The notes under the pieces were generated by a model. The model worked only from the letters and a program-made list of their open reading frames with translations. It was not told the origin of the DNA and ran no database searches. This document shows, one piece after another, positions 3,670 to 42,951 of a stretch of 45,974 nt of DNA; the first letter of the stretch is position 1; each line of letters opens with the position of its first letter. The position numbers were made by a program, and so were the translations under genes. This DNA is from Reclinomonas americana ATCC 50394 (lineage: Eukaryota). The DNA lies in the NCBI GenBank assembly GCA_048213135.1, contig PS015653.1, positions 1-45,974 of the forward strand, in the 5' to 3' direction.

Positions 3670-3933
3670 ATGGACCCGTTTGACAGCTTCCGCAATCCGT
3701 TTGTGTTGCGTTCATGCTTTTTCTTACTCAGTCAGTCGCGAGGTTGATGGTTGGGAAGGTGGGACGTCTCACACATACATGCAGCAATGGATCTGGTTCC
3801 ACTGGAGGCAGCATGCACCCGCGCACACCACCGGGCGCACCTGCGTATGGCATGAGCGCGCGATCGCCCTCTCGCAACAGCCAGGCATCGTCAATGGGCT
3901 CCACTCTCCCGCGCATCAACTCGCCGCGTATCG

Positions 3934-3976
<43 letters not shown>

Positions 3977-5561
3977 GCTCATGAGTGTGTGTGTGACAGC
4001 GACTGACGATGAGACGCTGGGGTATCCGACCATGGGATCGTCGGGAGGCACTCCGCGAGCCATGTCGCCGTCGTTGGCGCAGCTGGCGGCGCGAGTGCGT
4101 GAGGTCGAGGGCCACATTGACTACAGCAAGGAGGCGCGCCAGCGAAAGACGCAGGAGCGCATGGTCGAGTCGTCGACGTATCAGGTGCGGAGAGAGAGAA
4201 AGGGCTTTCGTTGCTTGCTGTGTTGCATCTGACTTGTTGTACACGCGTGCGTGTGCAGGATATGTATCGGCAACTGAACGAGAAGATGGCGGTGTTGATG
4301 CAAGGGCAGGCGCGCGAGGCGCGGGCGCGAGAGCAGTCCGAGCTCAACTTGCAGCGCCGTCTCGAGGAGCGCATTGCGCAGCTCGATCGTGATCTCTCCA
4401 AGTTCAAGCAGACGAGCCTCACGCCGCAAGACGAGGCATTCTTGCGCAAGGAGGCCAATGCGGCAGTGACCAAGCAGATTGCTGGCAAGGTGTGTGTGTG
4501 TGTCTGGCGAGACGCTGCGCAAGAGAACTTGTTGCACTCACGCCTTGCCTTGTCTTGTCAGATGGAGGAGCGCTTCACACGACTCGAGGCCATTATCACC
4601 TCGGTGAATGAGACGTTCCAGAATTCGGAGCAGAACACGCTGAAGACGTACCACCAGTTTGACGACAAGCTGGTCGAGTTTGAGCGCCGTCTCGAGACCT
4701 TCCGCGAGCAGATTATCAAGAGTTGAGTGCCTCGCGCTGTTTCTCCTCTTGAGTTGTGTGGCTGACGTTGGTCCTTTGGTTGGCACAGAGACACTGGGTG
4801 CGGAGGAGAACACGCGTGCGGCACAGGCAGCTGTGGCGCGCATGGAGCGAGCCATTGAAGAAATGCGAATGAGCCAAGCACAAAGCATGGCTGAGCAGTG
4901 GGGTTGCGTTCTTTCTGACTGTGCCTTGTCGTCTCGCCCGCAAGTCACATCTCATCACCTTTTCCATCACGCAGAGCGTTTTACTCGTGAACTCGGACTT
5001 CTTCGCGGTCAGATGGAGCAAGACCACGAGGACAGAAGACGAGAAATGGCCGAGGCCCTGCAGAGAGTCGAGGACAGCGTGGCGTTCATTCGCGAGGGCC
5101 GCCAGGCGTTTGAAAAGATGGTCGACATGCGCATTCAGCAGCAGGTGTGCTGTGGTGCCTCAAGCACTGCCTTGCTCTCCTGTCTGCTCATCTCCCTTTG
5201 TGTAGATGCAACTGTTCCGTGAAGAAAGCAACCGTCAGGCGTCGCGTCTGCAGGATTACATTCGCGAAGGCCTCTCCAAGCTGGAGAACGCCCTGACCAA
5301 CACCAACACGCGCTTTGCCGACCTGGAAGATGTTGCGTTTGATCGACACTCTCGTTGAGCTGTTGTGATCCACAATTGACACTTGTCATGCAACGAACAC
5401 AGACGGTGCACACCGAGAGGCGAGCACGGCACCAGGCCGTCGAGGCACTGCGGCTGGAAATGCAGGCCGAGGCACAGGTTCGCGACGAGAACGAGGAACG
5501 TATCGTGGCGCTGGTACACAAGCACGTGTCGAGGCTCGACCAAGGCGACGGCGTTTTGTGA
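3670..5561 (+). CDS. Coiled-coil protein of unknown family, about 9 exons
   Basis: Starts MDPFDSFRNPNGSG. E/Q/R/K-rich heptad-like exons (LAARVREVEGH; QDMYRQLNEK; MEERFTRLEAII; HQAVEALRLEMQAE) join in frame through GT-AG introns. Stop TGA at 5559-5561. Confidence 0.7.
3934..3976. repeat. Intronic compound (GT)n(GA)n microsatellite, typical of many introns in the window
   Basis: gtgtgtgt...gagagaga starting at the donor GT. Confidence 0.9.
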
Positions 5562-5739: not shown

Positions 5740-8700
5740 TTACCTAAGCACCTCCCCTCCTGCACCGCTGTCGTCGCTACCGCTTCGGCTGCCAGTGACT
5801 CCTCCATCACTGTCGGCCACATGGCTGCTGGCTGCCGAGTTGGCGGCTGGTCTGAGCACTGATTCGTACTCGTGCAGCTGCTCCACAAACGCCTGCGTGT
5901 GCACCACAACTCCTCAGCAACAACCACGGAGGATTTCTTGTTAAAACATCGCACATACCGGCGGCAGCACCACTTGTGGTCTCTTTTGTGTCACTTGCTG
6001 AATGGCCACCGTCACATCGCACGCCTGCCGTCGCATCCAGTACGCAATGGCAAACGCAGCCGCTCGACTGCAGAGAGACAGTCAGAAATCACAGAGAGCG
6101 TGTGCCACAAAGAAGGCGGACACAGCGAACGACGCACGTGTCACCAGTGTCACAGTAGAGCAGCACCCGACCCTGCGCTGACCGATCACGAACTTGCTCT
6201 GCGCAAGCCAACATCAGTGAGTCGAGGCACCAGCAGCAGCAAGGTTGTGTGCCAACGCACCAATGACGGCCAATACGGCCTCCAGATGCGGCAGCAGTTC
6301 CGCTCGCGAATCGTTTGCCACCGGAAACTAACCAGCAAGATCAAGGTGTCATCTGATGAGTCGAGTCGCGACATGGACTCCCAACAGCACACACACACAC
6401 TGACCACGTGGTACTGCACACCCGCAATGGCCGGCTCGACGTGCACTTCGGCTGCCACCGACACGACATCCGTAATCATCAGCGTCTCCAGTGTCTCCGC
6501 GTGACGAGCATACACGTGGCCTGCACTCCACCATGGTGAGAGAGTGCAGAACGCATTCTTCAGACGTGCCACGACTCCGCAACTGCCAATGTACAAGTAC
6601 GGAGCAAGCTGCGTGACAGCCGCTGCCTGGCGCAGCCACTTGTCCACGTGACTGTGTGCATTTGGTGAGAGGGGGCCAAAAATCAGTGCACAACAGAGTG
6701 CCACCACCGACCTCTCCGCCTCCAGATGTTGTCGCTCAAACTCAGAAGACAAGACGTCGCGTAGTCGCGCACGAAGTGCATCTGGATCCGTCAGTTCCGT
6801 GGTCGCCAACTGCGACATTAGCGCTTCGACGCGCTCATTCAACGCCTCTGGCATCAACGATCTCTCCGGGCTCAGCACTGCTAGACAACACAATAAGTTG
6901 ATGTAGATGTGACATCACAAAAGAGAAGGTGGTGGTCCGCACCTGGCACAGTGGCCGTGGGGCTGCCGACAACAATGCGAGTCGGTGACATGAGTGGTCC
7001 CGAGGCCGCACCAATGTATGGCGACTGCCTGATGAAGCCTGCACCGTCAGCACCAGCCATCAACTCCACGCCGAGCTTTTCGGCTTCCTCTTGCAGCACA
7101 GACTCTGCAGCAATCGCTGGTGAGAGAGAGAGAGAGAGAATCATCGTGTGCATCGATAAAGACACGAACCGAGCAGCGGTAATCGCTGCAGCATGTTGGA
7201 TGTTGGTCGACTGTTCACACTGTGCGGCAGCAGGAAGCGAAGCATGCGCAGGTCGGAGACCAGCAGAGCACCGGATTCTGAAAGGAGAAGGCTTGTCAAG
7301 CATCTGCCCGCACCAAATGGCTCCGCAAACACAAGAGACGCACCAAAATCGGCGAGTCGATGCAAGACGGCCACCAGCGCTGAATCAACATCCGCGTCTC
7401 GCAGTTGCATGGCGACGGCTAATGCCTCACCCAGGCGTTCCTCAACGAGGTGTGACACTATCCGTTCTGTGAACCCGGTCCGAGAGCAGAGTTGGCATCA
7501 CGGGAGAGACAGACTGCGTGCGCAACACAACTCACCTTCAATGTTCAGATGCGACAAGAGATGCTGCACGGCCAGCAGCGCGCCACGAACGACTCGCGGA
7601 TTGGTCGAACGGAGAAAGGTGAACCACCCGTTCACCGGCGCACTGGCAACATACGAACTTGCTTGCGCTGCAGCACGGAGTGAGTGCACAGAAGCCATGC
7701 ATTGACGAGGCGTGACTTTCAAACGCAACGATTGAATGCCAGCTTGCTCAACACCTGCACCGCCAGCAGGTGATCGTCGCGATCGCGCAGGAAGGCTACC
7801 GCACTCGCCGCCAACCATGCGACCTATCAATGTGTGCGCAGGTGAGTAACCCAGATACGCCATGTGCACGAGAGAGCACACGCAAACCTCGTAATCGAAG
7901 CACGACATGAGTACTCGCAAGACCTCGCGCGGAGCCAGCACCTGGTTCTGATCCAGTTGCTCAAGGCACAGCGGGTCTGCAACATATGTGAGAGAGAGAG
8001 CGACCAAGAGGAGGGAAGGGCTAGTGACATGACAGCTCACCCCGCTGAACGTTCTCGAAGAACCACCTGGCCTCGTAGCGCTCGAGGAACCACTCGTCGC
8101 GTGGTGTGGCCGCTGTCGAGTCGCCAGCTGCACAGCGAGAAAGTCAGACTGGAGCGACGGAAAACCGACCACAACGACAGTCACACGAACGTCCGATGGT
8201 GTCGAGAAACGCGCTGATGCTCTCAAACGTTGGCCGTGCGGTCACATCCGCCAGCAGACACCGCTTGATCAAGTCCTGCGAAAATCGGAAACAAGAAATC
8301 AGCTATTGCATTCAGCACCAATGCACTCGCTAGCGCGATCGCAACGTTCAGAGCCGGTGGCCACCACGGCGGCAGCGCAGGTTCCTGATTGTGCATGAGT
8401 GGCTCACGAATGTGTGCAAACACCCAATCCTCTGCACGACCGCCATGAGAACCAACACACACAAAAACAGAAGCAGTAGCTGGGTTCCCACCTTTCTGGA
8501 AGATATCAAAATCGGGGTGATCACGGATAAACATGATCTCGAACAGCGTGATGCCGAAGCCTGTACACACCAATGGCTGTCAGACGACACGGACTCACAC
8601 AAGAAACGGCGGCGCATGTGGATGCAACTGAACACGTCGGCTGCGCAGCAAAACAGATGAGTAAGTGCGACTCGTCACATCCTGTTTAGATCACGAAGTG

Positions 8701-11700
8701 CGACCTCACCTGGCTTTCCATAACTCGGCGATAGGGCCACCTGGAGAAGAGAACTTGAGCAACAGAAAACACGGAAGACCTGTTCACGGTCGGCAAATTA
8801 CCTCGGGTGCCTGCATCGAATCACATGCATGAGTCGCCGCGCAACACATGCAACAACAGCAGCAGCACAGCAGCCAGCACGTACCATGTAAATGATGGTT
8901 CCCACCGCACCCGACGCCTGTCCTGTCTCCAGGACTCGCGACAGGCCAAAGTCTGAGATCTTGACGGTGTAGTTTTGATCAACCTGCGAGTGCAGTGTGA
9001 GTACGTCGGCGTTGTGCAACACGGACAGTGCCCGGCACTTCGAACCAGCAGATTGAGCGGCTTCAGGTCCAAGTGAATAATGTCTCGCATGTGCAAATAG
9101 TTCATGCCGGCGGCGACGCCGACCAGCATGCGCCAAAGTCGCGCGTCTGTGACCACTACACGCTCCCGCATTGGTTTGATGATGTTGTACAAGTTGCCTG
9201 CAGCAGCAGTTTAGCACCACGCACACACACACACACAACCGCAGCACACACATGCGTGAGCAAACCTCGTTCCATGTACTCCATGGCAATGACAGGCGAC
9301 GTTCCACCGTCCTTGCTGCCGACATTGGTCGAGCCGACACCAATGAACAGAACAATGTTGGGATGCCGAAGCGCACTACCGAAAACACGGGGCGGGATTA
9401 GCACTTGCAGCGGCAAGTCGACATGGGAGGTATGAATACGTACACCATCATTCCGACTTCGGTGCGAATGTCGGCCAGCAGCTTCGGCGTCACAGCTCTG
9501 TTCTTGAGTCGTTTCACCGCGACATCGGCACCCCACAGCCTTGCTCTAGTAGTTGCATACCCACGCGTGTCAGATCCGACGACCATGCCGTGAGAGCGCG
9601 TGGCATCACTACGCAACTTGTAAACCTCGCCGTACATGCCCTCTGCCACCTTCTCCACAAACTCGATTGCATCCGACGAAATCTGCCACGACACATCGGG
9701 TCCTTGTGGGGCGTCGGGTAGTACCGCCAACCGGGCCGACTATACGCACGCACAAGTGAGTGACTGGATGTCGCAGAGGTGCACAATACATGCGTGCACG
9801 AAACTTGTCGAATGAGTGAGTTCATGCGATCGTTGAACACTTGCTTCATCTTCCTCAGGTCGCCAGTGAACGAGGGAACCACCCGCTCCATGGCCTCAAT
9901 CATGCCCTTCATGAACTGCTCCACGTTGCCGTTGCACGAGTTGAACCAGTGTTGCACGGCACCATCGCGTGCCGACTTGGCCCACTCGTGCTGCGCAGCG
10001 TCACCGATCGCGTTAGAGAGACTGGACATCCCATCCATCAGCAAGAGAGGGGACACTAACCCTTTGCGTCGCAATGGCTTGGATCCACAAAGTGACTTCC
10101 TCCTGACTCTGCACCGCAACGAGGATCGTATTGCTGCACGAGTACGACAACTTCGATGAGCACGACATAAAGCGACTCACATCTGTGCGTTTCGAGTCAC
10201 CTGGTAGTCGACGTCTCAATGCGAAACGCATATGGCCGTACCGCACGCTCCTCGCTGCTTACGTCCTCCACCGACACAATGTCGCCCAGAAACACGGAAC
10301 GCACGTGTGACCATGAGCGCTGCATATACGGAGGCCGAGTGAGCGATGCACAACACGCGACGGCGACGTCGACATCAAACCTTGGTGAAGAAGCACAGAT
10401 CGGTATTCCGCAGTACCAGCAGACGTTCCTCCCACACATCTGCATCGACCGCCAACATCGCCTCGAGCAGCGTGGAACACTCCCACACCGTCGACTCCTT
10501 CAGCGCCGCACGTCTCGACAGAACCTCCTGTGCGGTGAACATGCGGTGAATGGCTGCAGCCAAAGGGCGATGGAAACAAAGACGCGGTCACGCAACGTTG
10601 GCCAGCATGGGACCCATCGACTGCACGCGAGGAAAGTGGCGAGCCATTCGCGACTTCCGCGTCGGCTCATCGGCCTGACGCAGAGATGATGGCGTGATGG
10701 GCGAGCTTGGCGACGAGCGGCCATTGTGTGTCGGCAACAACAGAGGTCGCGTCGGCGACAGACGGAGGGGAGCAAAAGATACGACAGCATCAGCGGAGGG
10801 CGATCGTCGCAGGTCATCACGCTCCGACGGCGGCAGATCGAGTGACGGCCGATGTACCGTGAGCTGAGCTGGATCGACCACTGCCGTCTCCACCACCAAA
10901 GGCGCTGATGGCAAACCAGCAGCAGCAGTGGCATTAGCGGTAGTAGCACTGGCAGTAGTGGTGGTAGTGGTGGTGGTGGTCGTTGTTGTTGTCGTAGTTG
11001 CCGGGGCGACTACAGGTACCACCGATACCACCGGAGAAGCCAAGGCGGGTGAAACGGGACCTGCAGCAGCGGTACTGACTGGATTGTTGGATGTGGATCC
11101 GTTACTGGAGAGTGTGCTACTCGGTGTCACGAGAACGCCACCAACGGCCTGCTCGGAGCTGCCAATCACCATCTGCGAAGAATATGGTGAGGGACGCGAG
11201 TGACGCGGTTAAAGAGAGTCTGCGCCCCCCCCGCACCTCACGCTCCAGCAACTGCTCGATGCCGAAACGCAAATACGTCAGCGCCGTGACCCACTGGTCG
11301 CGCACTGTTGCACTGGTGCACATAATGTCGATGGTGCGATCCTGCAGCATCACACTGAAGCCGGTGGCTGCGGCGCGGATCGACCCATTAGCGATTATGC
11401 AGCGAAATTACAAGGCGTGCCAACGCGACGCACCAAGCAACTCGCTCCACCCGGCATCCAGTGCCGCCTTGAGCACCGGCGTCTTCACGCCGCTCCAAAT
11501 GTCGAGAACCGACGACAATGGCACCGAGCGTCCCAAGCCACGCGCCTTGCTTCCCCACTGCGGTACGTACATACACCCATATCAGTATCGCACACGCACA
11601 CGAGCAGACGAGTGCTGTTGCACCCCCGCTTCAGCGCACCAGAAGCGATTTGCGATCCTCGGAGATGGCAAACCATCGCTTGTGGTGGCTGCCTGGCCGA

Positions 11701-12442
11701 TGACCGTGAAACACAAACTTATTCAACAGCATCGGTCGCAGCAGCTTCTCCACAGCGGCCTGAGCATGCTCCTGCGTCTGCTTATGCAACGTGCGAGCTC
11801 GCTCCACCTCGATATCACTGTGCGCGTGCCGCGTGACCCCATCTTCCCGACTCGACGAGTCCTGTCGCATGCGCTCGGCCACTCGCGAGAATGCCAGTGT
11901 GGCCATCGACTGTGTGGAGAGAGGAGGCATGCATGTCAGTCTGCTGCTGCTCCCACTGCTGCTCTCGTCACTCTCTACCTCTCCACGCACATTCGTCTGC
12001 GGAATGCAGCACAAGTGAGTGGCACGCCAGCCAATTGCACCTCGTGTGAGACAGATGTACGCACCGCCACAGGCCTGACCTCCATCAACTCGCGCAGCGT
12101 CTGCACCCATCGCATCTTCTCCTCGTGCGAGCTGGCCTCAAACAGGTGCTGCACATGTGGCGGAGTGCGCTCAACGAGCGCAAAGAACTGCGACGTGTCA
12201 GTGGCCCGCTCAATCTCCGCAATGGTCAACAGACTGATTTCGTTGCACGGGATGGTATCCTGTGTGTGTGAGAGTGAGAGAGGCATGTGAGAGAGAGAGC
12301 GTGTGTGCGTGTCAAGGTGGCGACAGGCGAGAGAGACCTCGTGTGATCGGAACACCGACAATGTGTATTGTTGTGCTCGGACCCAGAACTGTGCAAACGA
12401 GACGCTCTCCTGGCCGGTTGGACACCACAAGTGGCCCTCCAT
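5740..12442 (-). CDS. Multi-domain signalling protein: 3 PH domains + TKL/Raf-like kinase + helical (ARM-like) region + C-terminal dual-specificity phosphatase, about 30 exons
   Basis: PH ends: FEASSHEEKMRWVQTL, DIMCTSATVRDQWVTAL, VAVQSQEEVTLWIQAI. Kinase: VAEGMYGEVYKARLWGADVAVKRL, LRHPNIVLFIG, IIHLDLKPLNLL, ISDFGLSR, GTIIYMAPE, ADVFSFG. DSP: TQLAPYLYIGS, VLLYCDTGDTRAAAFAIAYWM, KRPQVVLPPAFVEQLHEYE. The junctions I traced join in frame through GT-AG introns. Confidence 0.8.
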
Positions 12443-23092: not shown

Positions 23093-25149
23093 CTAGAAGG
23101 GGATCGTTTGACCCTCCCATGACCGGAATGATCCGGAGTCGGCCAGCGTCGACGACTCCACCACCTTGATGATGGCCGGCGCCACCGTGCCCACCTTCAG
23201 CGGTGGCTCGTGCNNNNNNNNNNNNNNNNNNNNNNNNNNNNNNNNNNNNNNNNNNNNNNNNNNNNNNNNNNNNNNNNNNNNNNNNNNNNNNNNNNNNNNN
23301 NNNNNNNNNNNNNNNNNNNNNNNNNNNNNNNNNNNNNNNNNNNNNNNNNNNNNNNNNNNNNNNNNNNNNNNNNNNNNNNNNNNNNNNNNNNNNNNNNNNN
23401 NNNNNNNNNNNNNNNNNNNNNNNNNNNNNNNNNNNNNNNNNNNNNNNNNNNNNNNNNNNNNNNNNNNNNNNNNNNNNNNNNNNNNNNNNNNNNNNNNNNN
23501 NNNNNNNNNNNNNNNNNNNNNNNNNNNNNNNNNNNNNNNNNNNNNNNNNNNNNNNNNNNNNNNNNNNNNNNNNNNNNNNNNNNNNNNNNNNNNNNNNNNN
23601 NNNNNNNNNNNNNNNNNNNNNNNNNNNNNNNNNNNNNNNNNNNNNNNNNNNNNNNNNNNNNNNNNNNNNNNNNNNNNNNNNNNNNNNNNNNNNNNNNNNN
23701 NNNNNNNNNNNNNNNNNNNNNNNNNNNNNNNNNNNNNNNNNNNNNNNNNNNNNNNNNNNNNNNNNNNNNNNNNNNNNNNNNNNNNNNNNNNNNNNNNNNN
23801 NNNNNNNNNNNNNNNNNNNNNNNNNNNNNNNNNNNNNNNNNNNNNNNNNNNNNNNNNNNNNNNNNNNNNNNNNNNNNNNNNNNNNNNNNNNNNNNNNNNN
23901 NNNNNNNNNNNNNNNNNNNNNNNNNNNNNNNNNNNNNNNNNNNNNNNNNNNNNNNNNNNNNNNNNNNNNNNNNNNNNNNNNNNNNNNNNNNNNNNNNNNN
24001 NNNNNNNNNNNNNNNNNNNNNNNNNNNNNNNNNNNNNNNNNNNNNNNNNNNNNNNNNNNNNNNNNNNNNNNNNNNNNNNNNNNNNNNNNNNNNNNNNNNN
24101 NNNNNNNNNNNNNNNNNNNNNNNNNNNNNNNNNNNNNNNNNNNNNNNNNNNNNNNNNNNNNNNNNNTCGCCGTTTGCGCGTCCCATGTCGGTCTGGTGAG
24201 TGGAGAGAAAGGTGAGCGTCGAGGGAAGGGGGGAGGGAGGAGAGAATGAGAGCGATGCGCAACATCGACCCAACCCGGGTGGATGCTTGTGACGACGACG
24301 TTGAGCTCGTCGAACTCGGTCTTGAGCACCTTGGCGGCTGTGTACGGTGGGGCGCCAGTGAGCGATGTGCGAGAGAGAGAGAAAGAGAGACAGTGTAACG
24401 CACTAATGTTGACAGCAGCCTTGCTTTGGCGGTAGGCCAGCGCACTCCATGTGCCGCCGGCGGCCAGCTGCGTCGATCCGAGAATGGAGGAGATGAACAC
24501 CAGTTGCTGCGTCGCGGCACACCACACGTGAGAGGGAGAAGGAACAGGGGGGAAGGAATAGGGCAACAGCAAGTACCTTGTTGGCGGATTTGGACTTGGC
24601 AAGCAGCGGCTTGAACACCTTGCTGACGATCAGCGGGCTCACTGCGTTGACGTTGAGAACCTCCAGCACTCCGGCGCGGTCAATCGTGTCCAGGTGGTAC
24701 GCTGCGATGGCGAGGGGAGGAGGTGAGCGGCAATGCAAACGAAGAGGTGTCATGCAGCGCTATAGCAGCGCAACTGGTCTTCTCGCCCGTGATGCCGGCA
24801 TTGTTGATGACCCAGTCGATCTCGCCGTCGGTGCGCGCGGCAATCTCCGCCGCCGCACGCTCCACAGAGGCGTCGTCGACCACGTCACACTGCACCGCAG
24901 TCACCGTGTGGGGGAAACGGGCGACAAGCTCTTGCAGCGCCGTGGCGGCGTCGGGATCGCGAGCGCCCGCAAATACAGTGTGGCCGGCCTCGGCGAGCTC
25001 CGTGACCAGGGCGAGACCTGGAGAGGAAGTGAGAGGCGCGCGGTGAGTGTCTGCAAGTTCATGTGTGTGGGTGAGCGAGACGTCGACACACACTCACCGA
25101 TGCCACGAGAGGCTCCGGTGACAAAGATGCGTTGAGGGGAGGCAGACAT
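23093..25149 (-). CDS. Short-chain dehydrogenase/reductase, C-factor/CsgA-like (interrupted by an assembly gap)
   Basis: TGASRGIG, NNAGI, FISSILGS, YRQSKAAVN (YxxxK), SIHPGWVDTDMG, SGSFRSWEGQTIPF*. Confidence 0.9.
23214..24166. other. Assembly gap (953 N)
   Basis: Run of N. Confidence 1.
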
Positions 25150-26148
25150 GTTGGTGGTGTGGAAGGGAGAGGAGGAGGAGGTGGTGGTGGCGGTGGTATT
25201 GGCGTGCAGGGAGAGGCGAGAATTGGTGGGTTTTGTAACCCGCGGGCGCCGACTCCGATGCGTGCACTCCGAAATCACGCAATATAACATTGTCGGGAAT
25301 GTATGGCGAGAGGCTCCGCGAGTAGCTCGCATTCGGATGTGCTTGTTTGTGTGTGTGTGTGTGATAGCAGGGTGTGGTTGCGGATGCGGATGCAAGTTCC
25401 ATCTTCAGCGCGCGATTGTTGGGTTCGAAATCGAATTCCTGGCCATGGGCAAGCAGCGCTGCAGCCAGCGCTAGCTGAAGGCAGGCCCAGTCACCCCGAG
25501 TCTTACATGACCTGCATACGCTTCATTGAACAGCAAACTAAGGTCTCAGCGTGCTCGGAATTCATTCGAATTCGTTTGCCCTGTCTGGATCGCTGCGCTG
25601 CGCTCCGGTTGCATTTCACGTTGTTGAGGATTTTGTTCTAATTGCTGCGAGCTACTCTTTTTTTTTTGCGGGGAGTCGGAGTACCGTCGCCGACAAGCCG
25701 CGGCCAGTGGCCGGGACAGATCGCTTGTCCGAATTCAGTCGTACATTCGAATTCACAAGTGTGCGCACTGCTGCTCCGTGACGGCTGAGTGCAACTACAT
25801 GCACACTGGTGCCTGCGCACTCAGTCGATTTCGCTCGCCACTGCGCCTGCGCCTGCAGGTCGACGTCACATATCGATTATAGATGTCGAACTTTAGATTT
25901 CATGCAATCGATCACGATATCACTGTTCATTGCAGTGCCCAGAACCCCAAATTCAACAGCGCGCACAGAAAAAGCGCCACACACACCCACTCTTACGCCC
26001 CCATTGCGCAACATTTCGAATCGGAGTTTTCGCCGAATGCGGAATATGCCACAAGGGTGACCCGACGCAAATGACCCACACAAAACAAACTATTGCGCAC
26101 TTGTCTGCAAACCGTTTGTCACCTACTTCTTTTCTTCCAGTCACTACC

Positions 26149-27559
26149 ATGAGCGCTAACCAGTACCCCACTCTCCTCTCCCCCTTCCAAGTCGGCGACC
26201 TGCAGCTCTCGCACCGCGTGGTCCTCGCACCGATGACTCGCAGCCGCACTCGCGGAGCCCCGGATTTCGTTGCGCGCTCGTTCTTTTTGCGTCACTCGCC
26301 GCGACGACTGCTGCAACTGACTCCCTCTGAACAGCTGCTGCAAGACAATGTGGCGGTGCACTTTGCACAGCGCGCCACTCCCGGTGGCCTGCTGGTAAGC
26401 GTTTTGCCCCAGTCACTCTTATTGTCTGTCTCTCTCTCTCTCAAACATGCAATGGCAGATCACTGACGCCACCAACGTCTCGCGCATGAGCACTCCCTTC
26501 AACAACGCCGTGTGCATCTGGAGCGACGAGCAAGCGGAGAGCTGGCGCGCGGTGACCGAGGCCGTGCACGCCAAGGGCGGCTACATTTTCCTGCAGCTGT
26601 GGCACGCCGGCCGTGTTGGCCACTCGGACTACACGCCCGACCACCGCCCTCCGTTTGCGCCGTCGGTCATTGAGCCGGCGGACTCGGTGCAGGTGTACGA
26701 CTCCACCGACGGCCACGTGCTGACGAACAAGAAGGCGTCGGTGCCGCAGGAGATGACGGCGGAGGATATCGCCACCACCATTGCGGAGTTCGGGCAGGGG
26801 GCGGCGCGCGCGGCGCATGCGGGCTTTGATGGCGTGGAGATCCACGGCGCCAATGGCTACCTCATTCAGCAGTTCCTCAGCGACGGCACCAACAAGCGCA
26901 CCGATGCGTACGGTGGCTCGATTGAGAACCGCATGCGCTTCTTGCTCGAGGTGCTCGAGGAAGTCAGCAAGCACTTCCCCGCCAACCGCATCGGCATTCG
27001 CCAGTCGCCCGTCACGCAGTGTTGCGTCCTCCTCTGCTGCTGCTGCTGCTGCAGCAAGACGATGAAGAAATCTGCGTACTTACTGGCTTTCTCTCGCAGA
27101 CAACGACGTGATGCACACCGACATCGAAGCCACATACCACGCGGTCGCCAAGGCCCTGAACGGCAAGTTGGCCTACGTCCACCTGTGCGACTTCAACCCG
27201 GCGGTGGCCGAGTCAAACCTCGCGCTGTTCAGCGAGTTCAAGGGGCCGCTGATGATCAACGGCGGCGTGCCGCCTGAGCAGGCCGAGAGCCTCGTTGCGT
27301 CGGGCAAGGCGCACTTCGCGTCGTTCGGGCGCCTGTTTATCGCCAACCCGGACCTCGTCGAGCGCCTTCGCATCGGCGCGCCGCTCGCGAAGCACGACTA
27401 CCCGGTACGTGCATTTGTGCGTGTGCGAAGTGTCATGATGACGCTTGGAATGCTCACCTGTTCGTGCACTTGCAGACGTGGTACGTTGGAGGCGACAAGG
27501 GCTACATCGACTACCCCACGTACACACCGGGCGAGTCTTCTGCCGCCGCCGCCGAGTAA
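26149..27559 (+). CDS. Old Yellow Enzyme / NADH:flavin oxidoreductase (classical OYE), 5 exons
   Basis: HRVVLAPMTRSR, QRATPGGLLITDAT, FLQLWHAGR, GFDGVEIHGANGYLIQQFL, NKRTDAYGGSIENRMRF, FGRLFIANPDLVERL, GYIDYP. Confidence 0.95.
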
Positions 27560-27665
27560 GCGCTAACTTGAGAGTGGATGACATGAACTGCGCTCAGCTG
27601 TGGTTGCAACACTCCGCCTACATGCACTTATTATGCACACACAAAAAATTCCTCCTCCGTCTCCT

Positions 27666-28521: not shown

Positions 28522-31500
28522 ATGAGTGGACGTGAGAGCGGTGGCGGTGGCGGCGACGATGACCGTCGCACACATCAAGTGGCGCGCATGCCGACGTGGG
28601 CGGCTGGTATCGATGAGCCACCTGCCGTGGTGCCACCTGTCGCCACTGCCGCGGCAAGTGGTAGTGGTGCGACACATGGAGCTGCTGCTCGTGTGCGTGG
28701 CAGCCATGGTGGCGCAGAGTCTGACTCAGACTGCGATGATGATGATGATGAGGATGAGGATGAGGATGTGAGTGATTTGGATGGTGAAGCCAATGTTCTG
28801 CTGCGTTTGGCGCGCATTTCGCTGGAGGCGGTTGATCGGCAGCAGCAGCCGGAGGCTGGCGAGAAGCGGTGTTTTGTGCGGGCGCTGGTGCAGGAGGATC
28901 GAGGGGATTCGACAGTGACAACGGCGGTTCGGGTGGGACAACCGGCGGCACGTGGAGCAAGTGCGGCTGGCAAGGCAGAGGAGGTGCACCGCACGCGACT
29001 GCTGCGACAGATGCACGGTGCTTCGCTGGGCGGGCAGGGCGATGAGGTGTGTTGTGTTGACCAGTGACCACTTGTCTCTGTGTGACACGCAGTCACACGT
29101 GGTGTGTTTGCCAGGGCGAGGAGGCGGCATTCGTCGTGCGACCGTCGCGGCGGCCACGGTTGGTGCTGCAGCTAATCGACGAGGACACCGATGCCGTGAT
29201 GGCGCAGAGTTCAGCCACGCCGCTGTTGGCCTCCACCGACAGTGGAATGCTGTTGCCGCCGATCGGTTCGGGAGCGCCGGCACACCAAAATCTGACCGGT
29301 ATCACGCTGCAGCCAGTGGGGCCGTCCTCACGCTTCCGTGTCAGCATTGACGGTGTGGTGTCGCCCGTCGCCTTTGGCATGTCACCGGTCAAGCGTGGTC
29401 GACCGCCCACCACGGGCAACCGTCCACCGCCGGGCCAGCGATCGATGTTGAACACGCCATTACAGGTGTGTGTGTGTGTGTGACCCAACTCATCCACCTT
29501 CTCATGCCTTGTTTCTTCCTCCCCTCAGGGCCAGCATCCGGCCTGTCGCATTATCAAGATTCACGCCCACTGCGCGTCGCCGCTACCGATCAGCGCGGCC
29601 ATGGCCTCGGTGGCGTTCCAGGTGGTGGAACACGTCGTCGAAGTGGCAGAGTCGCGTGACGGCGACGGCGTGGTTCGTGTTCGTGCCGATGCCGAGGTGG
29701 AAGCGGTGGCGGTGGAGGGCCAGTGTGCGCGGTGGCGGAGAACGATTGAATTGAGTCTGCCTGAAGAGGTGCGAGGCGGCGACTGCACGCGCTGATACCA
29801 CAGTCTGTGTAACACTGCGTGGGGAATTCCTTGTGTGAGCAGGATCTGGCCAGTGGAGCCAGCGTGGGTCTGCGAGTACAGGTGCGCTTGCACGGCGCCG
29901 ACGGTCGTGTGAGCGATGGTCTGCGTTTCGTCATTCCGTTCCACTGCTTGACATCGTCGCACACGTTGCGTCCAGCGTGTCTGAGGGCAGCTGTTGTATT
30001 ACCTTTGTCTTCAACCACTGCCCGCGCACAGGCACAATCTGGAGGTCGTCAGTCGCGACGGTGTGCGACTGTATCTGACGCTGCAGGTGGAGCGCTTCCG
30101 TGAGGAGGACATTGTTTTGTTTGAGGAGCGACCGTCACTTCGCCGACTAGGGGTACGTGTGCGCGGCATGTCGTTGTGCCTCTCTTCCTCGTTCGTGTGT
30201 GGGTAACACTGTACTTGTGCAGGTGTCCATCATGATGCTCGACGGTGAACTGGCGGCCGCCGGTGTCGTGAGCGACTTTGTGCCGGTGGTATCGGTGATG
30301 CCTGACATGACCATCTTCAAGTCCAGCATCAGAAGAGTTTCGCGATGCCGTCTTCTTGTTGGTGGGTCTGCGCTGGCCTGACACTCTCTGTGCTTGCATG
30401 TGCGCAGGGTTCCTACTCGATCAACTTGCCAGTGTCGACGGTGCACTTGTCGGAGGCGAATCCGTTTGAGAGTCTTGTTTCGTACACCCATCCAGCCAGC
30501 CGTGTTCCTCGGTGTCACTGCTGCTGCTGCTGCTCACAACGCGGGGGTGATGCAGGGGTTTGTCGCAAGTCCATTCCTCTCCAAACCACAAGTGCTCTTT
30601 CCGGGAAGTGTTCGCTCGTCGATGGTGGAGTTCAACGAGCGCTGCGTATTCGTGCAAGATCAGGTGTGTGTAGCATGCAGGGAGCGAGTCCTTGTTTCAC
30701 GACGTGCTCACGTTCTGCACAGGCAACACTCGGTCCCAACACGCACGTGGTGGTGCAATTATTCGAGCGCACCTTTCCGCAACCGGTTTGACACTGTCTG
30801 TGCTTCTCTCTCTGCTCGTGTGTTTGTCGCTCATCGCATGCCATCGCGCAGCCGGACGAGGAAGGCGAGCACTCGTTGGGCGCCAAGCTGCGCGCTTTCG
30901 TGTCCATTCCGATATCAGAGATTGCGGCGCCGGAGAACATGACACCCGAGGTCAGCGCTCGCGCACTTCACCATGTACCTTGTGCAATCCTGACAGCACG
31001 TGTGGTGTGGTGCAGGGATGCCTCGAGTGTAGTGCACGTTGCAAGTTGCGAGTCGTCGGTGCTTCGGATTACCACATGGAGGAAAAGTGTGGGGTACGTG
31101 TTGTGTTGTTCATGCCGTCCACTCCACACTGTCGCCGTGGCGTGACTTGGAATGGATGCGATGCAGCTCCATGTGAAAACGGCACTGTGGGTTGGAGAAA
31201 AGTACCTGGTCAAACTGCGGCGTGAGTCCGCTGGCCTCGTCCGTCCCGTCTCCTCCGTGTTCTCCGATCCTGTCAAATCACCCTCGTCTCCCAACGTCGA
31301 CGACGGCCGGCTCTCGCGGCAAAGTAGCCTCGGGCGCAATAGGTTTGCCTGGTGGAGATGGGTGACAGCGGTGAAGGAGGCTGACTATTCCACGCACTCG
31401 CAGCTTTCTGAATCCACGAAGCTCACGAATGGCCGGTGGACGACCTCCCAGTGAACAATCACCGCGTGTCGCGGCCGACGGCAATATGGGTGGTGCGTAC

Positions 31501-33947: not shown

Positions 33948-35426
33948 ATGCCAGTGTTCACCACCGAGTTCTCTGGCTACTCGGTGTGTGCCTCTGTTGC
34001 ACCGTCTGCTCACACAACGCACACGCTCTCTCATACACACGCTCATCACCAGGTCGAGTTTTCGCCCTTTGAGGAGACGCGTCTGGCCGTGTCGACCGCG
34101 CAGCACTTTGGCATTGTGGGCAACGGACGGCAGTATGTGCTCGACGTGAACACCGACGAGGGAGTGATTGAGACAGTGCACACGTTTGATTCGAGTTGCG
34201 TTGTGTGGTGACGAGAGATGCATGCTTGAAGTGTGTGTGACCCTCTCTCTCTCTTTCTCTCTGTCAGACGATGGCCTGTACGACTGTGCGTGGAGCGAGG
34301 AGAACGAGAACCACCTGGTCAGTGTCAGTGGCGACGGAAGTGTCAAGGTGAGACCGTTGCTTTCACTCCCTCCGGCACATCGGAGGAGGCGCATTGACTG
34401 CGTGTTGTGCACAGATCTGGGACTTGGAAGCTCTGGAGAACCCACTCAAGAGCTACGCAGAGCACCAGAACGAGGCGTATTCAGTGGACTGGAACCTCGT
34501 CGGTTGCGTGCTTGGGTATGCTTGATCGTTCCTTGCCACACGTCTCACCGTTTTGCAGGCAAGGACACGTTTGTGACGGGTTCGTGGGATGAGACTGTGC
34601 GAGTGTGGTCGCTGGAGCAGGATAAGAGCTTGCGAGCGTACGAGGAGCACACGTACTGCGTGTACTCGACGATTTGGTCGCCAAGCGACGCCAATGTGTT
34701 TGCGTCGGCCTCGGGCGATTGCTCGGTCAAGATCTGGGACGTGAATGGTTTGGTTGTTGTGCGGCGATGCGCAGGTGGCGACACACACACGATCACCTGA
34801 CTTTTGTTGCGCATGGGTACGCAGAGTTGCACTCGGTGCAGACCCTGAAGGCGCACGACTACGAGATTCTCACGTGCGACTGGAACAAGTACAATGACAA
34901 CATTCTCGTGACCGGCTCCGTCGACAAAACGATTAGGATATGGGTGCGTGGTGCTCGTTTTCTGTGGGGTTGCTGCGTCACCTCACCACATGCCTCGCAG
35001 GACCTACGCGCACCCGAGCAAGAATTGTCGACGCTGCGTGGCCACACGTATGCGGTGCGTCGCATCAAGTGCTCACCACACGAGGAGAACATTCTCGCTT
35101 CGTGCTCCTAGTTGCGCCGCGGATGCAGCTCGCTCTCACAAGCATGCATGCCTGTGTGTACTCACGCGCTGTTGTCACAGCGACATGACGATGATTGTGT
35201 GGGACACGGAGGCGCGTGACCCCATCTTGCACAAGCACGAACATCACACCGAGTTCGTGGTCGGTCTGGACTGGAACCTCTACGTGGAGGGTCAGGTGCG
35301 GGCGTGCTTATTTTCTTCTATTGGCATCTGTGATGTCGCTCAATGCAGCTGCAGGTGGCCACGTGTGGCTGGGACGAAAAGGTGTGCGTGTGGGAACTCG
35401 GAGAAGATCCGCTTGCCAGGTCGTGA
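33948..35426 (+). CDS. PEX7: Peroxisomal targeting signal 2 receptor (WD40), 9 exons
   Basis: GYSVEFSPF...LAVSTAQHFGIVGNG, NDGLYDCAWSE, SGDGSVKIWD, AHDYEILTCDWNKY, GHTYAVRRIKCSPH, SCSYDMT, HHTEFVVGLDWN. Confidence 0.95.
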
Positions 35427-35561
35427 TCTCCCATCGCAGCGTTGGTGGCGATGACCATGGCAGGGGGGGATTGGACAGTAAAGAGACGATAGAAGGATGG
35501 TGTGTGAAGCCTCAACATCCATTGTTTTCGTGTCACTGCAGCTCCACCGGCCATTGTTGGC

Positions 35562-37459
35562 TCATGTGCGCGACGCGGGCGCATGAGTGCTCGCGCATTC
35601 TGCGCGGTAGTCGACCGGAATGTGTGGTCGCATTCGGCGATCAAAGGCCTCCAGCGGGCACAACAGCGACGAGGAGCCGGGAACCCACAGGTCGCGCCCG
35701 TCGTGTGCCACACGGAGCAGGGTGCTTGGCGCAGCCGGATTGGAGGTGTCTTCGTACACCTCGAACACCAAGGCCGAGCAGTACGGCGGCCACGGCGAGG
35801 CAGTGTACACGTGCATCACATCCTCCGGTCCAGGACCCGTCTCCACGCCGTCGACCAGATTGTTGTTGTTGTTGTTGTTATTGGCATGATTGTTCTTCTC
35901 GGCCGCGTTGGCCGGGACGTGCAGCTGCAGCGCAGCGAGGAGGGGCAAAATCGTGCTGTCGTGCGCGGTGAAGAGTAGCAATCGCGGTCTGTCACACGGA
36001 GACGTGTGAATAAAACGGCTTGCACACACAGGCAGATGCGAGTGACTCTCACCCCGATCGCGCGTGGTCCCGGGCAATGTGGATAATGTCGTCCACCAGG
36101 CTGCCAGAAGAGAGAAGGACGTCAGCGACAACTCAACTCACCACCTTTGCGCGTTTGTTTGACCACACGCAACCGTCCCATGGCCAGGCGGCTGAGCTCC
36201 GGATCGGCGTACCACGTCCACCAGCGCGCACGGTTGATCTCGGCCGCCAACTCCAAGTCGGCGGCAGTCAGTGGCGCCGGGAACGGCATTCCGTGCTCAT
36301 AGCGACACCGCAACAGCTCATGCACGCCGGTCCACGACACGTGCTCTCCCTCGGGAATGTCGTAGGCCTTGGCGATTTAAACAGCAAGTGAGACAGCGGC
36401 GATGCAAAGGGAGGGCTTGTAGGTACACGAACCTGCCGCACACGTTGCGACAATTCACGCTCGGCCTCGCCGACCTCACGCACGCGATCACGACGAGTGT
36501 GCGCGCGCAACAGACTGGCGAAACGAGCACACTTGCGATCCGAGTTGGACAGGAGCGTCTCGCGATCCCACAAGCGCACATTGATCGGCACCGTGGTGTG
36601 CAACTGCGCCGGCTCCGCCGTCTCCCGATCGATCCAGTTGGTGGCGGGAGGCGGATACAGCCCGAGCACCACATTCTGCGCCGTCTGCACCGTGCGCGAG
36701 AAACCAGTGCTCCTCACAAACAGCGCCGACCGATTCTCGTCTGCAACGACACCCCACCGCACGTCAGCACACGCACAGCGCAGGAAACGACGACGCCGCA
36801 AGCAACACTCGCCAGTGAGACTCGCCGGCAGCAGTCCGTAGTACTCGACGTACAGCTCCCGCAGTGCGTGACCCACGCCACGCGCCTGCGCCGCTCCGCG
36901 TGTGGTCAGCTCTCCCAGCGGATGCCGTCGGCTAAAGTTCACCGCGTAGCTCTCGTTCGGGTTCTCGTCTCTGCGCGCGCACGTGGATCGACGTGAGCGG
37001 GGAAGACGTGTGAGGCAATCATCCATGATGGGGAAAACCACGCAGCTGCACCGGCGGGCAGTTGTCGTCCCAGGCCAGCCGGTCATCGGCCGACGGAAGC
37101 GATCGCAGCCAGTACGCTCGCTCCTCCTCTGTCACGCGATAGGCGCGACCCAGCGACTCACTGACAGGCGCACGATCACCATGCCTGCACCGCAGATGCA
37201 TCCTTCTGTCAACAACACAGCTTTCTCGCGACAAAGCACAGCACACAGACCGCATAATGACAATCACACGACGGAGGTGCACGTTGGGCGGCAGTGGCAA
37301 GCGACGCGGAACGTGCTGCTCGGCCACCGACGCACTCGGCGTCGTCTCCGCAAAGAGCGTGTATCGACTGTGCGCTCGCCGCTGCGACAGGAAGAGCCAC
37401 AGCGCCGCACCTGCAGTGCTCACACAGAGCCCAGAGCGGGCGGCCTGCGCGAGAGACAT
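35562..37459 (-). CDS. Histidine acid phosphatase (branch 2, ACP6-like)
   Basis: Spliced RHGDRAP, GELTTRG, FVRSTGFSRTVQTAQ, LFTAHDSTI, WPPYCSALVFE. The N-terminus is hydrophobic/basic and resembles a targeting peptide. Confidence 0.9.
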
Positions 37460-40879: not shown

Positions 40880-42183
40880 TTATGTGGATGACGAGGCGCC
40901 TGATGAGGAGCCGCCAAGTGTCACCGACGAAGTGGTGCTCGCCACGTTCGGGCAGTTCTCGACAATCCACGGGTGCTTCAGCACATCCTCAAAGTTCATG
41001 CGCTTCTTCGGGTTCTTGACCAGCAACTGTGTGTGTGCACAAAGAGTGAGCGAATGGGATAAAAGAAGAGTCGAGAGATATGAAACAATGTACGCACCCT
41101 GGTGATCAAGTCGCGTGCACTCTCCGACACATAGTCGGGGAACCTCAAGTCGACCTTGGCGATGCGGCGATATGTCTCCTGGTGGCCCTGAGCCTCGAAA
41201 GGTGGCTGACCGACGAGGAACTCGTAGCAGAGAACGCCGAGGCTCCAGTTGTCCACGTTCTCGTCGTGCGGCTCACCCTCCACCATCTCCGGCGGCAGGT
41301 AATCGAGAGTGCCGCAGAGGGTGGTGCGTCGCGAGTTGGGAGCGTGTACACTCCAGCCAAAGTCGGCAATCTTCAGGTTGCCTCGGTGGTCGAGCAGCAG
41401 ATTCTCGGGCTTGATGTCACGATGAATGACATGCTTCTGGTGCAAGTAGATCAGTGCGTCGGCCAGTTGCGCAATGTACTGTTGGTTGTTGCGCACGCAC
41501 ATCATGTGAGCTTCCTCGTTGAATGCACACAAGCGTAAGATAGTGACAAACCGTGGCAGCACGCTGCTCGTCAAAGCGGCCTTGCTTCTGGAGTTCCTTG
41601 TACAACTCGCCCTTGGCGGCGTACTCCAGAATCAGATACACGCGGTTCTGATCGTGGAAGTAGCCGTACAGACGCAGGATGTTCTTGTGGCGCAGGTGGG
41701 CCTGGATCTCGATTTCGCGGCGCAGCTGGTGCTCCACATTGGCCTTCTTCAGCTGGTTCTTGAACAACACCTTCAGCGCGACAATGTACTTGGTGCGCTT
41801 CTCGCGCGCCAGGTACACGTTGCCGAACTTGCCACGACCCAGCGGCTTGCCAATGTCGAAATCGGTCAGCTTCCAAGTCTGCGTCGCCGGGGCGGCCGCA
41901 GTCGAGGAGGAGGACGACGACGACGAGCCAGCGGCTGCGGACACTGGTGCTGACGATGACGAGGCACCAACCACGGTGGTGGTGGTGGTGGTGGTCTTGG
42001 TGAACCTGCAGCACGGGGTGGTCAGACAACTGCGAAGGCGATGAAATGGAACCAGCGCTGTTGTTCTCTCTCTCTCACCTGGCCTTCTCGCTGGCCATGC
42101 TGTCCACAGTCACGTGGCGCTCGCTCTCGTTGATGGCGGTGGAATCCTTGAAAGCGATGGTTGTCTTGCTCGAAAACGTCGCC
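40880..42183 (-). CDS. Aurora-family Ser/Thr kinase (5' end unresolved, may extend to 42946)
   Basis: [88 protein letters not shown]. Stop TAA at 40880-40882. Confidence 0.97.
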
Positions 42184-42399: not shown

Positions 42400-42946
42400 G
42401 CACGCAGGCCGTTGCACTCGACACAATTACACAAGACGTGCACCTCACAGAGAGACGTGCACGCACATGCACACACACAGGAATGTGNNNNNNNNNNNNN
42501 NNNNNNNGTCCACAGCAGATGCTGTGGATGGTGTGAGAGTATGATGCACACACACACTCACAAACAATCACAAAGACACACAGAGGCGCACGTGCACACA
42601 CACACACGTGCATGTACACACATGCTCTCTCTCTCTCTCTCTCTCGCACCATCTTGTAGGTAATGCCGCAGATAAAGCATGATTTGGGATCATGCTGCTC
42701 AATCAAGGGTTGCGGTGATGCGTCAGGCTGCAAGTGTGCACCGCTCAGCGGCGCCACACTTGCTGCAGGCGCGAGAGCAGTCGGAGGTGTGAGAGAAGAG
42801 GAGAGGGAGACAACGTGTGAGATGCAACACAGTGGCCGCAACGATGTCCGAGCTCGTTTGACGGGCGGCTGCTGCTCAATGGTGTCGTTGCTGTCGTCAG
42901 CGGCGGTGGTAGCTGCAGCGGGAGACCTCTCGCGATTGCCGCTCAT
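42400..42946 (-). CDS. Upstream coding exons: N-terminal extension of the Aurora gene or a separate short gene
   Basis: MSGNRERSP...PPVKRART (NLS-like) and EQHDPKSCFICGITYKM|GTGCG...CAG|HLLW. A 20-N gap at 42488-42507 prevents resolution. Confidence 0.4.
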
Positions 42947-42951
42947 ATAAG

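Follow-up and report, generated by a model that had tools for sequence, protein, structure and literature searches.

A predicted TKL kinase-phosphatase fusion of Reclinomonas americana and the protist family to which it belongs

The window analysed here is a stretch of 45,974 nucleotides from Reclinomonas americana ATCC 50394 (contig PS015653.1, labelled G000:C653). On its minus strand, at 5740..12442, it carries a gene predicted to join PH domains, a TKL-group protein kinase, armadillo-type helical repeats and a dual-specificity phosphatase (DSP) domain in one chain. Does such a protein both write and erase a phosphate, or has one of the two enzymes taken on another role? An earlier note on this DNA had proposed a membrane-recruited, self-contained phospho-switch. 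From the predicted protein and its relatives we favour, with modest confidence, a membrane-recruited active kinase with an armadillo scaffold and a phospho-binding DSP domain that would be weak or dead, in a duplicate of an old family.

Kinase, phosphatase and flanking domains

The kinase domain (aa 668-934, 8195..9667; all features of the gene lie on the minus strand) belongs to the TKL group and was recognised by the Pfam models Pkinase and PK_Tyr_Ser-Thr on exons 15 and 16. It scores 265.8 bits on a profile of the family described below. The catalytic motifs are complete: the VAVK (Lys695), the alphaC Glu (Glu713), the non-RD loop HLDLKPLN, the DFG and the APE quoted by the earlier note are all found in the spliced protein, and by these predicted motifs the kinase looks active. 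Non-RD kinases are generally not known to be controlled by phosphorylation of the activation loop. The closest solved structures to the family kinase are CTR1 and RAF (for the relative P0003: CTR1, E 7e-38, 33% identity), and a Foldseek search with the whole P0003 model returned kinases only.

The DSP domain (aa 1270-1414, 5854..6626) was placed by a profile and by alignment to a paralogue (z 26). Its presence at the C-terminal end, as had been claimed, is supported by the spliced domain, which scores 37.2 bits on a profile of four relatives (not Pfam's own DSPc model) against 3.2 for the best of 200 shuffles. On exon 35 alone DSPc gives E 1.3e-4 and 22.2 bits, below the cut-off of 33.5. The P-loop C-D-T-G-D-T-R is intact from Cys1360 to Arg1366, with the Tyr before the Cys and the Ala following the Arg that had already been noticed. 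The supporting residues are altered. Seven catalytic columns were compared, namely the D-loop, the residue before the Cys, the Cys, the +5 position, the Arg, the residue after the Arg and the N-loop. The window protein reads N/Y/C/T/R/A/P, against D/H/C/S/R/S/N in Slingshot, DUSP8 and the paralogue. The nucleophilic Cys and the Arg of the Cx5R motif are shared with active N-loop DSPs, whereas the P-loop Ser has become Thr and the N-loop Asn has become Pro1401; two Asp lie within the P-loop. The D-loop column holds Asn1327, followed by Asp1328.

The D-loop Asp, P-loop Ser and N-loop Asn (the DPN triad) are described, in the part of the study available, as conserved in atypical DUSPs, MKPs and Slingshots, and any one of them changed singly in DUSP22 lowers kcat/KM 40-500-fold [PMC7589817]. 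Human DUSP28, according to the excerpted account, has a Tyr before the Cys and very low activity [PMC5679558].

Ahead of the DSP, degenerate helices occupy the position of a DEK_C domain (about aa 1218-1265, 6639..6842). They score -3.9 bits on our own DEK profile (the paralogue reaches 43.1), and the pairwise alignment to the paralogue gives z 3.4, with 2 of 500 shuffles equally high; the Atlas DEK-C lead stands at 0.84. The region between kinase and DEK_C position (about aa 945-1150, 7106..8101) aligns to the paralogue with z 23 and is probably of armadillo type. In the P0003 model the middle region is all-helical (mean pLDDT 75). For the fragment P0167 the matches are importin-alpha, beta-catenin and further proteins of the armadillo type, the best at Z 13.8 (rmsd 3.7, 159 aligned), which lies near the tool's threshold and at a Z that is common for helical repeats (near 13). 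Foldseek with the armadillo fragment found nothing at E 0.001, and its weak rows were mostly armadillo proteins. Profiles from the database relatives alone did not detect the region. The Pfam scan of the gene was run exon by exon, and for exons taken singly from the armadillo region, the DEK part and the N-terminal portion of the DSP it gave no relevant match.

At the other end of the protein, PH domain 1 (aa 2-94, 12083..12439) passes the cut-off of PF00169 (E 1.4e-6, 29.2 bits, cut-off 25.1). The probable PH domain 2 (about aa 160-268, 11261..11735) is a weak call and only weakly supported: Pfam PH gives E 0.096 on exon 6, and the Atlas PH-clan leads lie at 0.76-0.84 (all under 0.9). It scores 0.6 bits on our own PH profile, no better than shuffles, and found no PDB match and no match among 186 proteins. 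A low-complexity linker rich in Thr, Ser and Pro follows (exon 7, 10597..11172), and then PH domain 3 (about aa 490-580, 10064..10464), the PH that is common to the family. On a PH profile built from five relatives it reaches 17.1 bits, where the highest of 500 shuffled sequences has 5.3, and its alignment to the paralogue gives z 6.5. A conserved linker leads from PH domain 3 to the kinase (aa 583-645, 9734..9987; z 26 to the paralogue, helical in the P0003 model).

Contig C134 is colinear with the window at 95.7% identity over 18.7 kb and is taken as the other haplotype of this locus. Counted at codon level, the two haplotypes differ by 73 synonymous and 9 non-synonymous changes (pN/pS 0.04). 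Every domain is shown to be under purifying selection, the synonymous to non-synonymous counts being 5:0 in PH domain 1, 7:0 in PH domain 2, 7:2 in PH domain 3, 12:0 in the kinase, 6:1 in the armadillo region, 7:0 in the linker plus DEK part and 9:1 in the DSP. Across 2347 nt of intron sequence there are 150 substitutions and 13 indels; across the 3780 nt of exons without exon 7 there are 65 substitutions and no indels. Exon 7 is the only exon with haplotype indels, both of them in frame.

The paralogue, the protist relatives and the switch

The paralogue lies on a third contig of the same genome (G000:C1073:42-4591), with a second copy on C1142/C1143. Its layout is PH-TKL-armadillo-DEK_C-DSP, all seven catalytic positions of its DSP are canonical, and it keeps the Slingshot motif discussed below. 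The 945 modelled residues show 32% identity to the window protein over 965 columns, from PH domain 3 to the DSP; a run of N interrupts the 5' part, where the PH domains are not countable. Fourteen of the 18 introns of the paralogue fall at the same column (within one) and in the same phase as in the window gene, and they flank the gap between kinase and DSP on both sides. Random placement of introns gave 0.54 matches on average and never more than 6 in 20000 draws. The best explanation is that the window gene arose by duplication of a whole gene within an old protist family and has since diverged.

With one kinase exon as query, three matches were obtained, two of which are proteins of a single open reading frame (ORF) with kinase and DSPc. 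These are collinear with the window model from aa 660 to 1414. Wider searches gave 11 distinct database proteins with the family kinase and a DSP (12 rows, since P0043 and P0186 are one cluster): P0002-P0005, P0039, P0040, P0043/P0186 (Percolomonas), P0044, P0049 (Rhodelphis marinus), P0065 (Andalucia godoyi) and P0084. From the 150 kinase-bearing rows examined, the best 48 entered a kinase tree (quick search), in which all 14 kinase+DSP rows fell inside one clade of 19 rows (SH-aLRT 99). No DSP was detected in the other five rows of this clade, of which P0137 at least seems to be without one.

The relatives and the paralogue share the kinase clade and the domain order of the window gene, whereas the state of the DSP active site varies among them. 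For the window gene, membership is shown by the kinase clade and motifs and by the collinearity of linker, armadillo region and DSP with the paralogue (z 26, 23 and 26). PH domains precede the kinase in 5 of the 11 relatives, two of which also have a PX. In each relative Pfam finds at most one PH (with the PX in those two), whereas the window gene has two firm PH domains and a weak one. The family layout is PX/PH-helical linker-TKL kinase-armadillo-DEK_C-DSP. The architecture, which the earlier note did not recognise, is no isolated case: it belongs to a widespread protist family whose C-terminal module is DEK_C with a Slingshot-like DSP. This family is apparently undescribed. A description was absent from the open literature searched, which leaves most subscription papers outside, and the comparison did not extend to the Giardia and Tetrahymena proteins of PMC2175518.

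Three of the 11 relatives keep the nucleophilic Cys (P0005, P0049 and P0084), seven have Ser, and in Andalucia no loop is recognisable; P0084, whose domain is badly cut, was left out of the comparison of active-site columns. Since the DSP has been retained although the Cys is lost in most relatives, a non-catalytic job is suggested.

Several members deserve mention in their own right. Natural Cys-to-Ser DSPs occur in P0002-P0004, P0039, P0040, P0043, P0044, P0046, P0051 and P0134. Most of these also lack the D-loop Asp and the N-loop Asn, and together they form a pseudophosphatase branch beside an intact kinase, Percolomonas included. P0049 and P0084 are PX-PH-kinase-DSP forms that retain the Cys; P0049 is without the Slingshot motif and of RD type. 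P0091 (273 aa) consists only of DEK_C and a canonical Slingshot-like DSP and may be a fragment of a fusion or a free-standing form.

The mechanism that we favour would run as follows. The PH domains, through which membrane recruitment is a fair inference, would carry the protein to a phosphoinositide membrane. There the active non-RD kinase would probably be governed by its location and by the domains on either side of it, not by phosphorylation of its activation loop, and the armadillo repeats would hold a partner or a substrate. The DSP, best read as a weak or dead phospho-binding domain, would bind a phosphorylated site, on the substrate of the kinase or on its own protein, and thereby hold, protect or feed back on the product. 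The paralogue on C1073, with its fully formed active site, appears a better candidate than the window gene for an active writer-eraser switch. Of the switch proposed earlier, the recruitment by PH domains therefore stands as a reasonable suggestion, while the switch itself fits the paralogue better than the window gene, given the changes of N-loop Asn to Pro, His to Tyr and Ser to Ala and the Asn in the D-loop column, with an Asp one place on.

A number of points weigh against this mechanism. The window DSP retains Cys and Arg and is strongly constrained (9:1). The D-loop call is ambiguous, as a one-residue insertion would align Asp1328 with the Asp of DUSP8. PH domains 1 and 2 are covered by no relative, and exon 7 opens with an ATG. 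The gene models of window and paralogue were both built by hand, that of the paralogue after that of the window. In DUSP28 restoring the His did not raise activity, as far as the available text reports [PMC5679558], and the Tyr alone is therefore not the cause of its low activity.

The foremost alternative is a self-contained switch after all, with both domains active and the DSP dephosphorylating the kinase itself or one of its partners (activator or substrate), in the manner of PHS1. In plant PHS1 the phosphatase restrains its own kinase. We consider such a switch in the window gene possible but rather unlikely. Beside the intact Cx5R and the constraint on the DSP, the Asp adjoining the D-loop column may serve as general acid, the Cys is kept in the paralogue, P0005, P0049 and P0084, and PHS1 itself offers a precedent of a kinase and an MKP-like phosphatase in a single chain, in the accessible part of its description [PMC8783414]. 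Against this, four of the seven catalytic positions depart and a fifth has gone from Ser to Thr, the P-loop contains its two Asp, and the Cys is lost in 8 of the 11 relatives. The end branch of the window DSP (2.19) is also among the longest in the DSP tree, whereas its kinase branch is not long.

The Slingshot-like end and cofilin

After the family itself, the next database matches of the DSP are Slingshots. Among PDB entries, P0046 matches SSH2 best (2nt2, E 7.8e-29), followed by DUSP2 (2.4e-25). The beta-1 motif of Slingshot (YLGSEWN-type) was found in 4 of 4 Slingshot rows, in 14 of 18 family rows and in none of the 10 other DSPs for which the aligned stretch reached this site (in 4 Dictyostelium rows it did not). 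In Slingshot and in the family alike, DEK_C stands directly ahead of the DSP, with common upstream and beta-1 motifs. SSH1-3 are laid out as SSH_N, DEK_C and DSPc, the SSH_N mediating activity and localisation, according to the part of the source at hand [PMC6457024]. The family differs in lacking SSH_N, in having a TKL kinase and an armadillo region in front and in the loss of the Cys in most members. SSH_N (PF23040) was found in none of the family proteins scanned by Pfam, though it was found in P0006, and it was absent from the window exons in the less sensitive exon-by-exon scan. A search of the genome for SSH_N gave no signal, and neither did its controls. The 2010 review names no obvious Slingshot homologues in protists, in the part available [PMC2994645]. 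By sequence, the DEK_C-DSP end of the family appears Slingshot-like. Later phosphatome work is said to place Slingshot in holozoans.

In the window copy itself the Slingshot motifs are gone, and little of the DEK_C can still be recognised. Its DSP shows 23-27% identity to Slingshot against 29% to DUSP8, while that of the paralogue shows 42% to Slingshot against 39% to a plant-MKP-like protein, a small margin. A Slingshot-like ancestry of the window DSP is suggested through the paralogue. As both SSH_N and the Slingshot motif are absent, membership of the window gene among bona fide Slingshots was rejected. The DSP tree has a poorly supported backbone, few outgroups and long branches for the window and P0049; a clade of family plus Slingshot was not rejected (p-AU 0.325) but was present in none of 200 bootstrap trees. 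The first DSP tree dropped 19 matches (the near-copies P0020-P0033, three matched among P0035-P0038 and two short matches), and the test of that clade dropped nine more (P0065, L009, P0017, P0018, P0013, P0015, P0009, P0186 and P0084).

The cofilin of this genome (C429, near 28800-29900) has an N-terminal Ser followed by Gly-Val. The first coding exon of its gene seemingly consists of nothing but the ATG, and the Ser of regulatory type lies in the exon that follows.

It can be proposed that the family, at membranes, phosphorylates the N-terminal Ser of ADF/cofilin and either dephosphorylates or binds it, as a writer-eraser or writer-reader that unites LIMK and Slingshot functions in one chain. 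The tandem of DEK_C and DSP and the YLGSEWN-type motif common to Slingshot and the family speak for this, as do the ranking of Slingshots directly after the family, SSH2 as best PDB match, the paralogue as the sole DEK_C locus found in G000, where it passes the cut-off of Pfam, and the N-terminal Ser of the cofilin. The proposal nevertheless seems improbable to us: SSH_N is missing from the Pfam profiles of the family, the window DSP has no Slingshot motif and is no nearer to Slingshot than to DUSP8, and the kinase is not LIMK-like. LIMK1 has the catalytic loop HRDLNSHN and the beta-3 motif MVMK, in the portion of the source available [PMC8750758], against HLDLKPLN and VAVK here, and in the fold search of P0003 it ranked 45th (26% identity, against 33% for CTR1). 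On these grounds membership in LIMK/TESK (LISK) was rejected. A broader conjecture would derive the DEK_C-DSP of Slingshot from an old TKL-fused protist protein, a one-chain writer-eraser of ADF/cofilin at membranes (in Discoba, Rhodelphis and the lineage of this organism), whose eraser repeatedly became a phospho-reader, with the window gene part-way there after its duplication. This is speculative, and we give it little weight.

Splicing, known fusions and genomic surroundings

The gene model was built by hand and then checked for splice ends, frame and motifs, the splicing being predicted from DNA. The coding region runs from the ATG at 12442 to the stop at 5742-5740 in 36 exons. Exons 1-12 are 12442-12338, 12259-12080, 11996-11979, 11909-11640, 11557-11434, 11367-11237, 11172-10597, 10527-10381, 10319-10201, 10133-10061, 9990-9805 and 9739-9618. 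Exons 13-24 are 9545-9444, 9375-9266, 9197-9046, 8983-8885, 8810-8802, 8740-8710, 8640-8629, 8560-8492, 8431-8346, 8275-8191, 8127-8041 and 7976-7888. Exons 25-36 are 7823-7730, 7667-7536, 7466-7344, 7277-7170, 7116-6943, 6880-6712, 6651-6584, 6520-6405, 6327-6261, 6198-6138, 6067-5959 and 5892-5740. The 35 introns are all GT-AG and 53-83 nt long, and their removal leaves a single open frame of 1451 aa. The GT..AG ends are conserved in C134 for 35 of 35 introns. A branch-point-like CTVAY motif lies 8-35 nt from the 3' end in 27 of the 35, compared with 13 of 161 exonic 27-mers.

In the kinase C-lobe (8629..8810), micro-exons of 9, 31 and 12 nt are required by frame and motifs, and their splice ends are conserved in the second haplotype; the first of them (8810-8802) encodes the APE motif. 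A phase-2 intron (6068..6137) interrupts the P-loop, and the paralogue has an intron at the identical position and phase. The coordinates, the kinase motifs and this split of the P-loop, as given in the earlier note, were all correct in the spliced model. Intron 3 (69 nt) is in frame and free of stops, so its retention would preserve the frame. A read-through from exon 12 to exon 13 was rejected, as a deletion of 10 nt affects the intron between them in the other haplotype. A homologue search with the intron-retaining frame 6405-6878 found no scoring match among 2125 candidates.

Could two or more adjacent genes have been fused by a wrong splice model, with a break after the kinase or between PH domain 2 and exon 7? 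Splicing was predicted from DNA, and retaining intron 22 or intron 6 brings a stop at 8146 or 11119, respectively. The absence of a stop after the kinase, which the earlier note had claimed, holds after splicing but not on read-through of intron 22. Moreover, intron 29 contains an AT-rich 60-mer (0.60) that resembles the 3' flank, exon 7 begins with its ATG, and no relative extends over PH domains 1 and 2. We nevertheless regard split genes as very unlikely. The longest spacer is 83 nt, every splice pair is kept in the second haplotype, the segment between kinase and phosphatase shows 13 synonymous changes and 1 non-synonymous, the collinear paralogue has common introns on both sides of this gap, and the relatives have kinase and DSP in a single ORF. 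That kinase, armadillo-type middle and DSP form one gene is borne out by the splice pairs, the paralogue and these relatives, and the region 5740..12442 is confirmed as one gene at the level of the predicted model. A gene break behind the kinase can be all but dismissed; one after PH domain 2 is less tightly tested, PH domains 1 and 2 being linked to the rest by frame, purifying selection and the lack of an intergenic spacer.

The least probable alternative, which we discount almost entirely, is that the Cx5R domain is a phosphoinositide phosphatase supplied by the PH domains, as these and the Asp residues of its unusual P-loop might suggest; its descent is from an N-loop DSP of the protein-directed kind (z 26 to the paralogue, common introns), and its loop has neither the basic residues typical of PTEN nor the Asp spacing seen in myotubularins.

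Kinases joined to phosphatases are known from other lineages. The trypanosomatid kinatases likewise have kinase and DSP domains in one chain, and as described in the parts of the sources available their kinase domains are CaMKK-like pseudokinases, LRRs are present and the DSP is active [PMC2175518, PMC13210143]. The present gene is their mirror image: its TKL kinase is intact, PH domains, an armadillo region and a DEK_C part accompany it, and decay affects the DSP instead. Membership was rejected, as Pfam gave no LRR match in the exons or relatives and the catalytic Lys, Asp and DFG are intact. The same source names, in its available part, kinase+phosphatase proteins in Giardia, Tetrahymena and Dictyostelium [PMC2175518]. 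PHS1 of plants and green algae also has a kinase followed by a C-terminal DSP and acts on the cytoskeleton; the accessible text describes an atypical actin-fragmin-type tubulin kinase with an MKP-like phosphatase and reports no PH, armadillo or DEK_C [PMC8783414]. The window kinase is of conventional TKL type, and membership in PHS1 was rejected. Dictyostelium DDB0229334 is also a kinase with DSPc but not of the TKL group; the excerpted kinome lists it as Other-Unique, with an N-terminal partial kinase domain and Arg for the catalytic Lys [PMC1420674]. PP2C and PhoD fusions of kinases appear in the available part of the Phytophthora kinome [PMC3019232]. CTR1 and RAF, the best matches of the family kinase in sequence and structure, differ from it in that the family has a non-RD loop, C-lobe motifs of its own, a clade of its own and other flanking domains. 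The fusion is independent of the kinatases, PHS1 and the Dictyostelium case, and the gene belongs to none of them, nor would it work in exactly the way of any.

The neighbours of the gene are a convergent coiled-coil-like gene (3900-5560, plus strand) and a divergent gene from about 13147 (plus strand), without Pfam matches in the frames scanned. Farther along, a short-chain dehydrogenase (minus strand) stands head to head with an NADH:flavin oxidoreductase (plus strand, E 1.8e-60) at 24680-27566. A WD40 protein, presumably PEX7-like, lies at 34168-35454 (plus strand), and a histidine acid phosphatase of branch 2 at 35500-37131 (minus strand, E 5.8e-9). The protein kinase at 40880-42109 (minus strand, Pfam E 1.3e-24) we take to be Aurora-like from its motifs. 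At 42913-45934 (plus strand) a reverse-transcriptase element extends over several frames (Pfam RVT_1, E 1.4e-14 at 43510-44142), non-LTR retrotransposon-like by eye. The sole small-subunit rRNA match of the genome, G000:C1:279109-280629, has 1521 bases, which is short for a eukaryote, and C1 may be a bacterial contig.

The family places a DEK_C-DSP tandem of Slingshot type among protists and so makes it testable where the cofilin phosphatase came from. The family offers a natural series from a canonical phosphatase through a Cys-to-Ser form to a lost domain, all beside an intact kinase. In R. americana the canonical and the degenerate paralogue stand in one genome and make a clean pair for the study of how pseudophosphatases originate.

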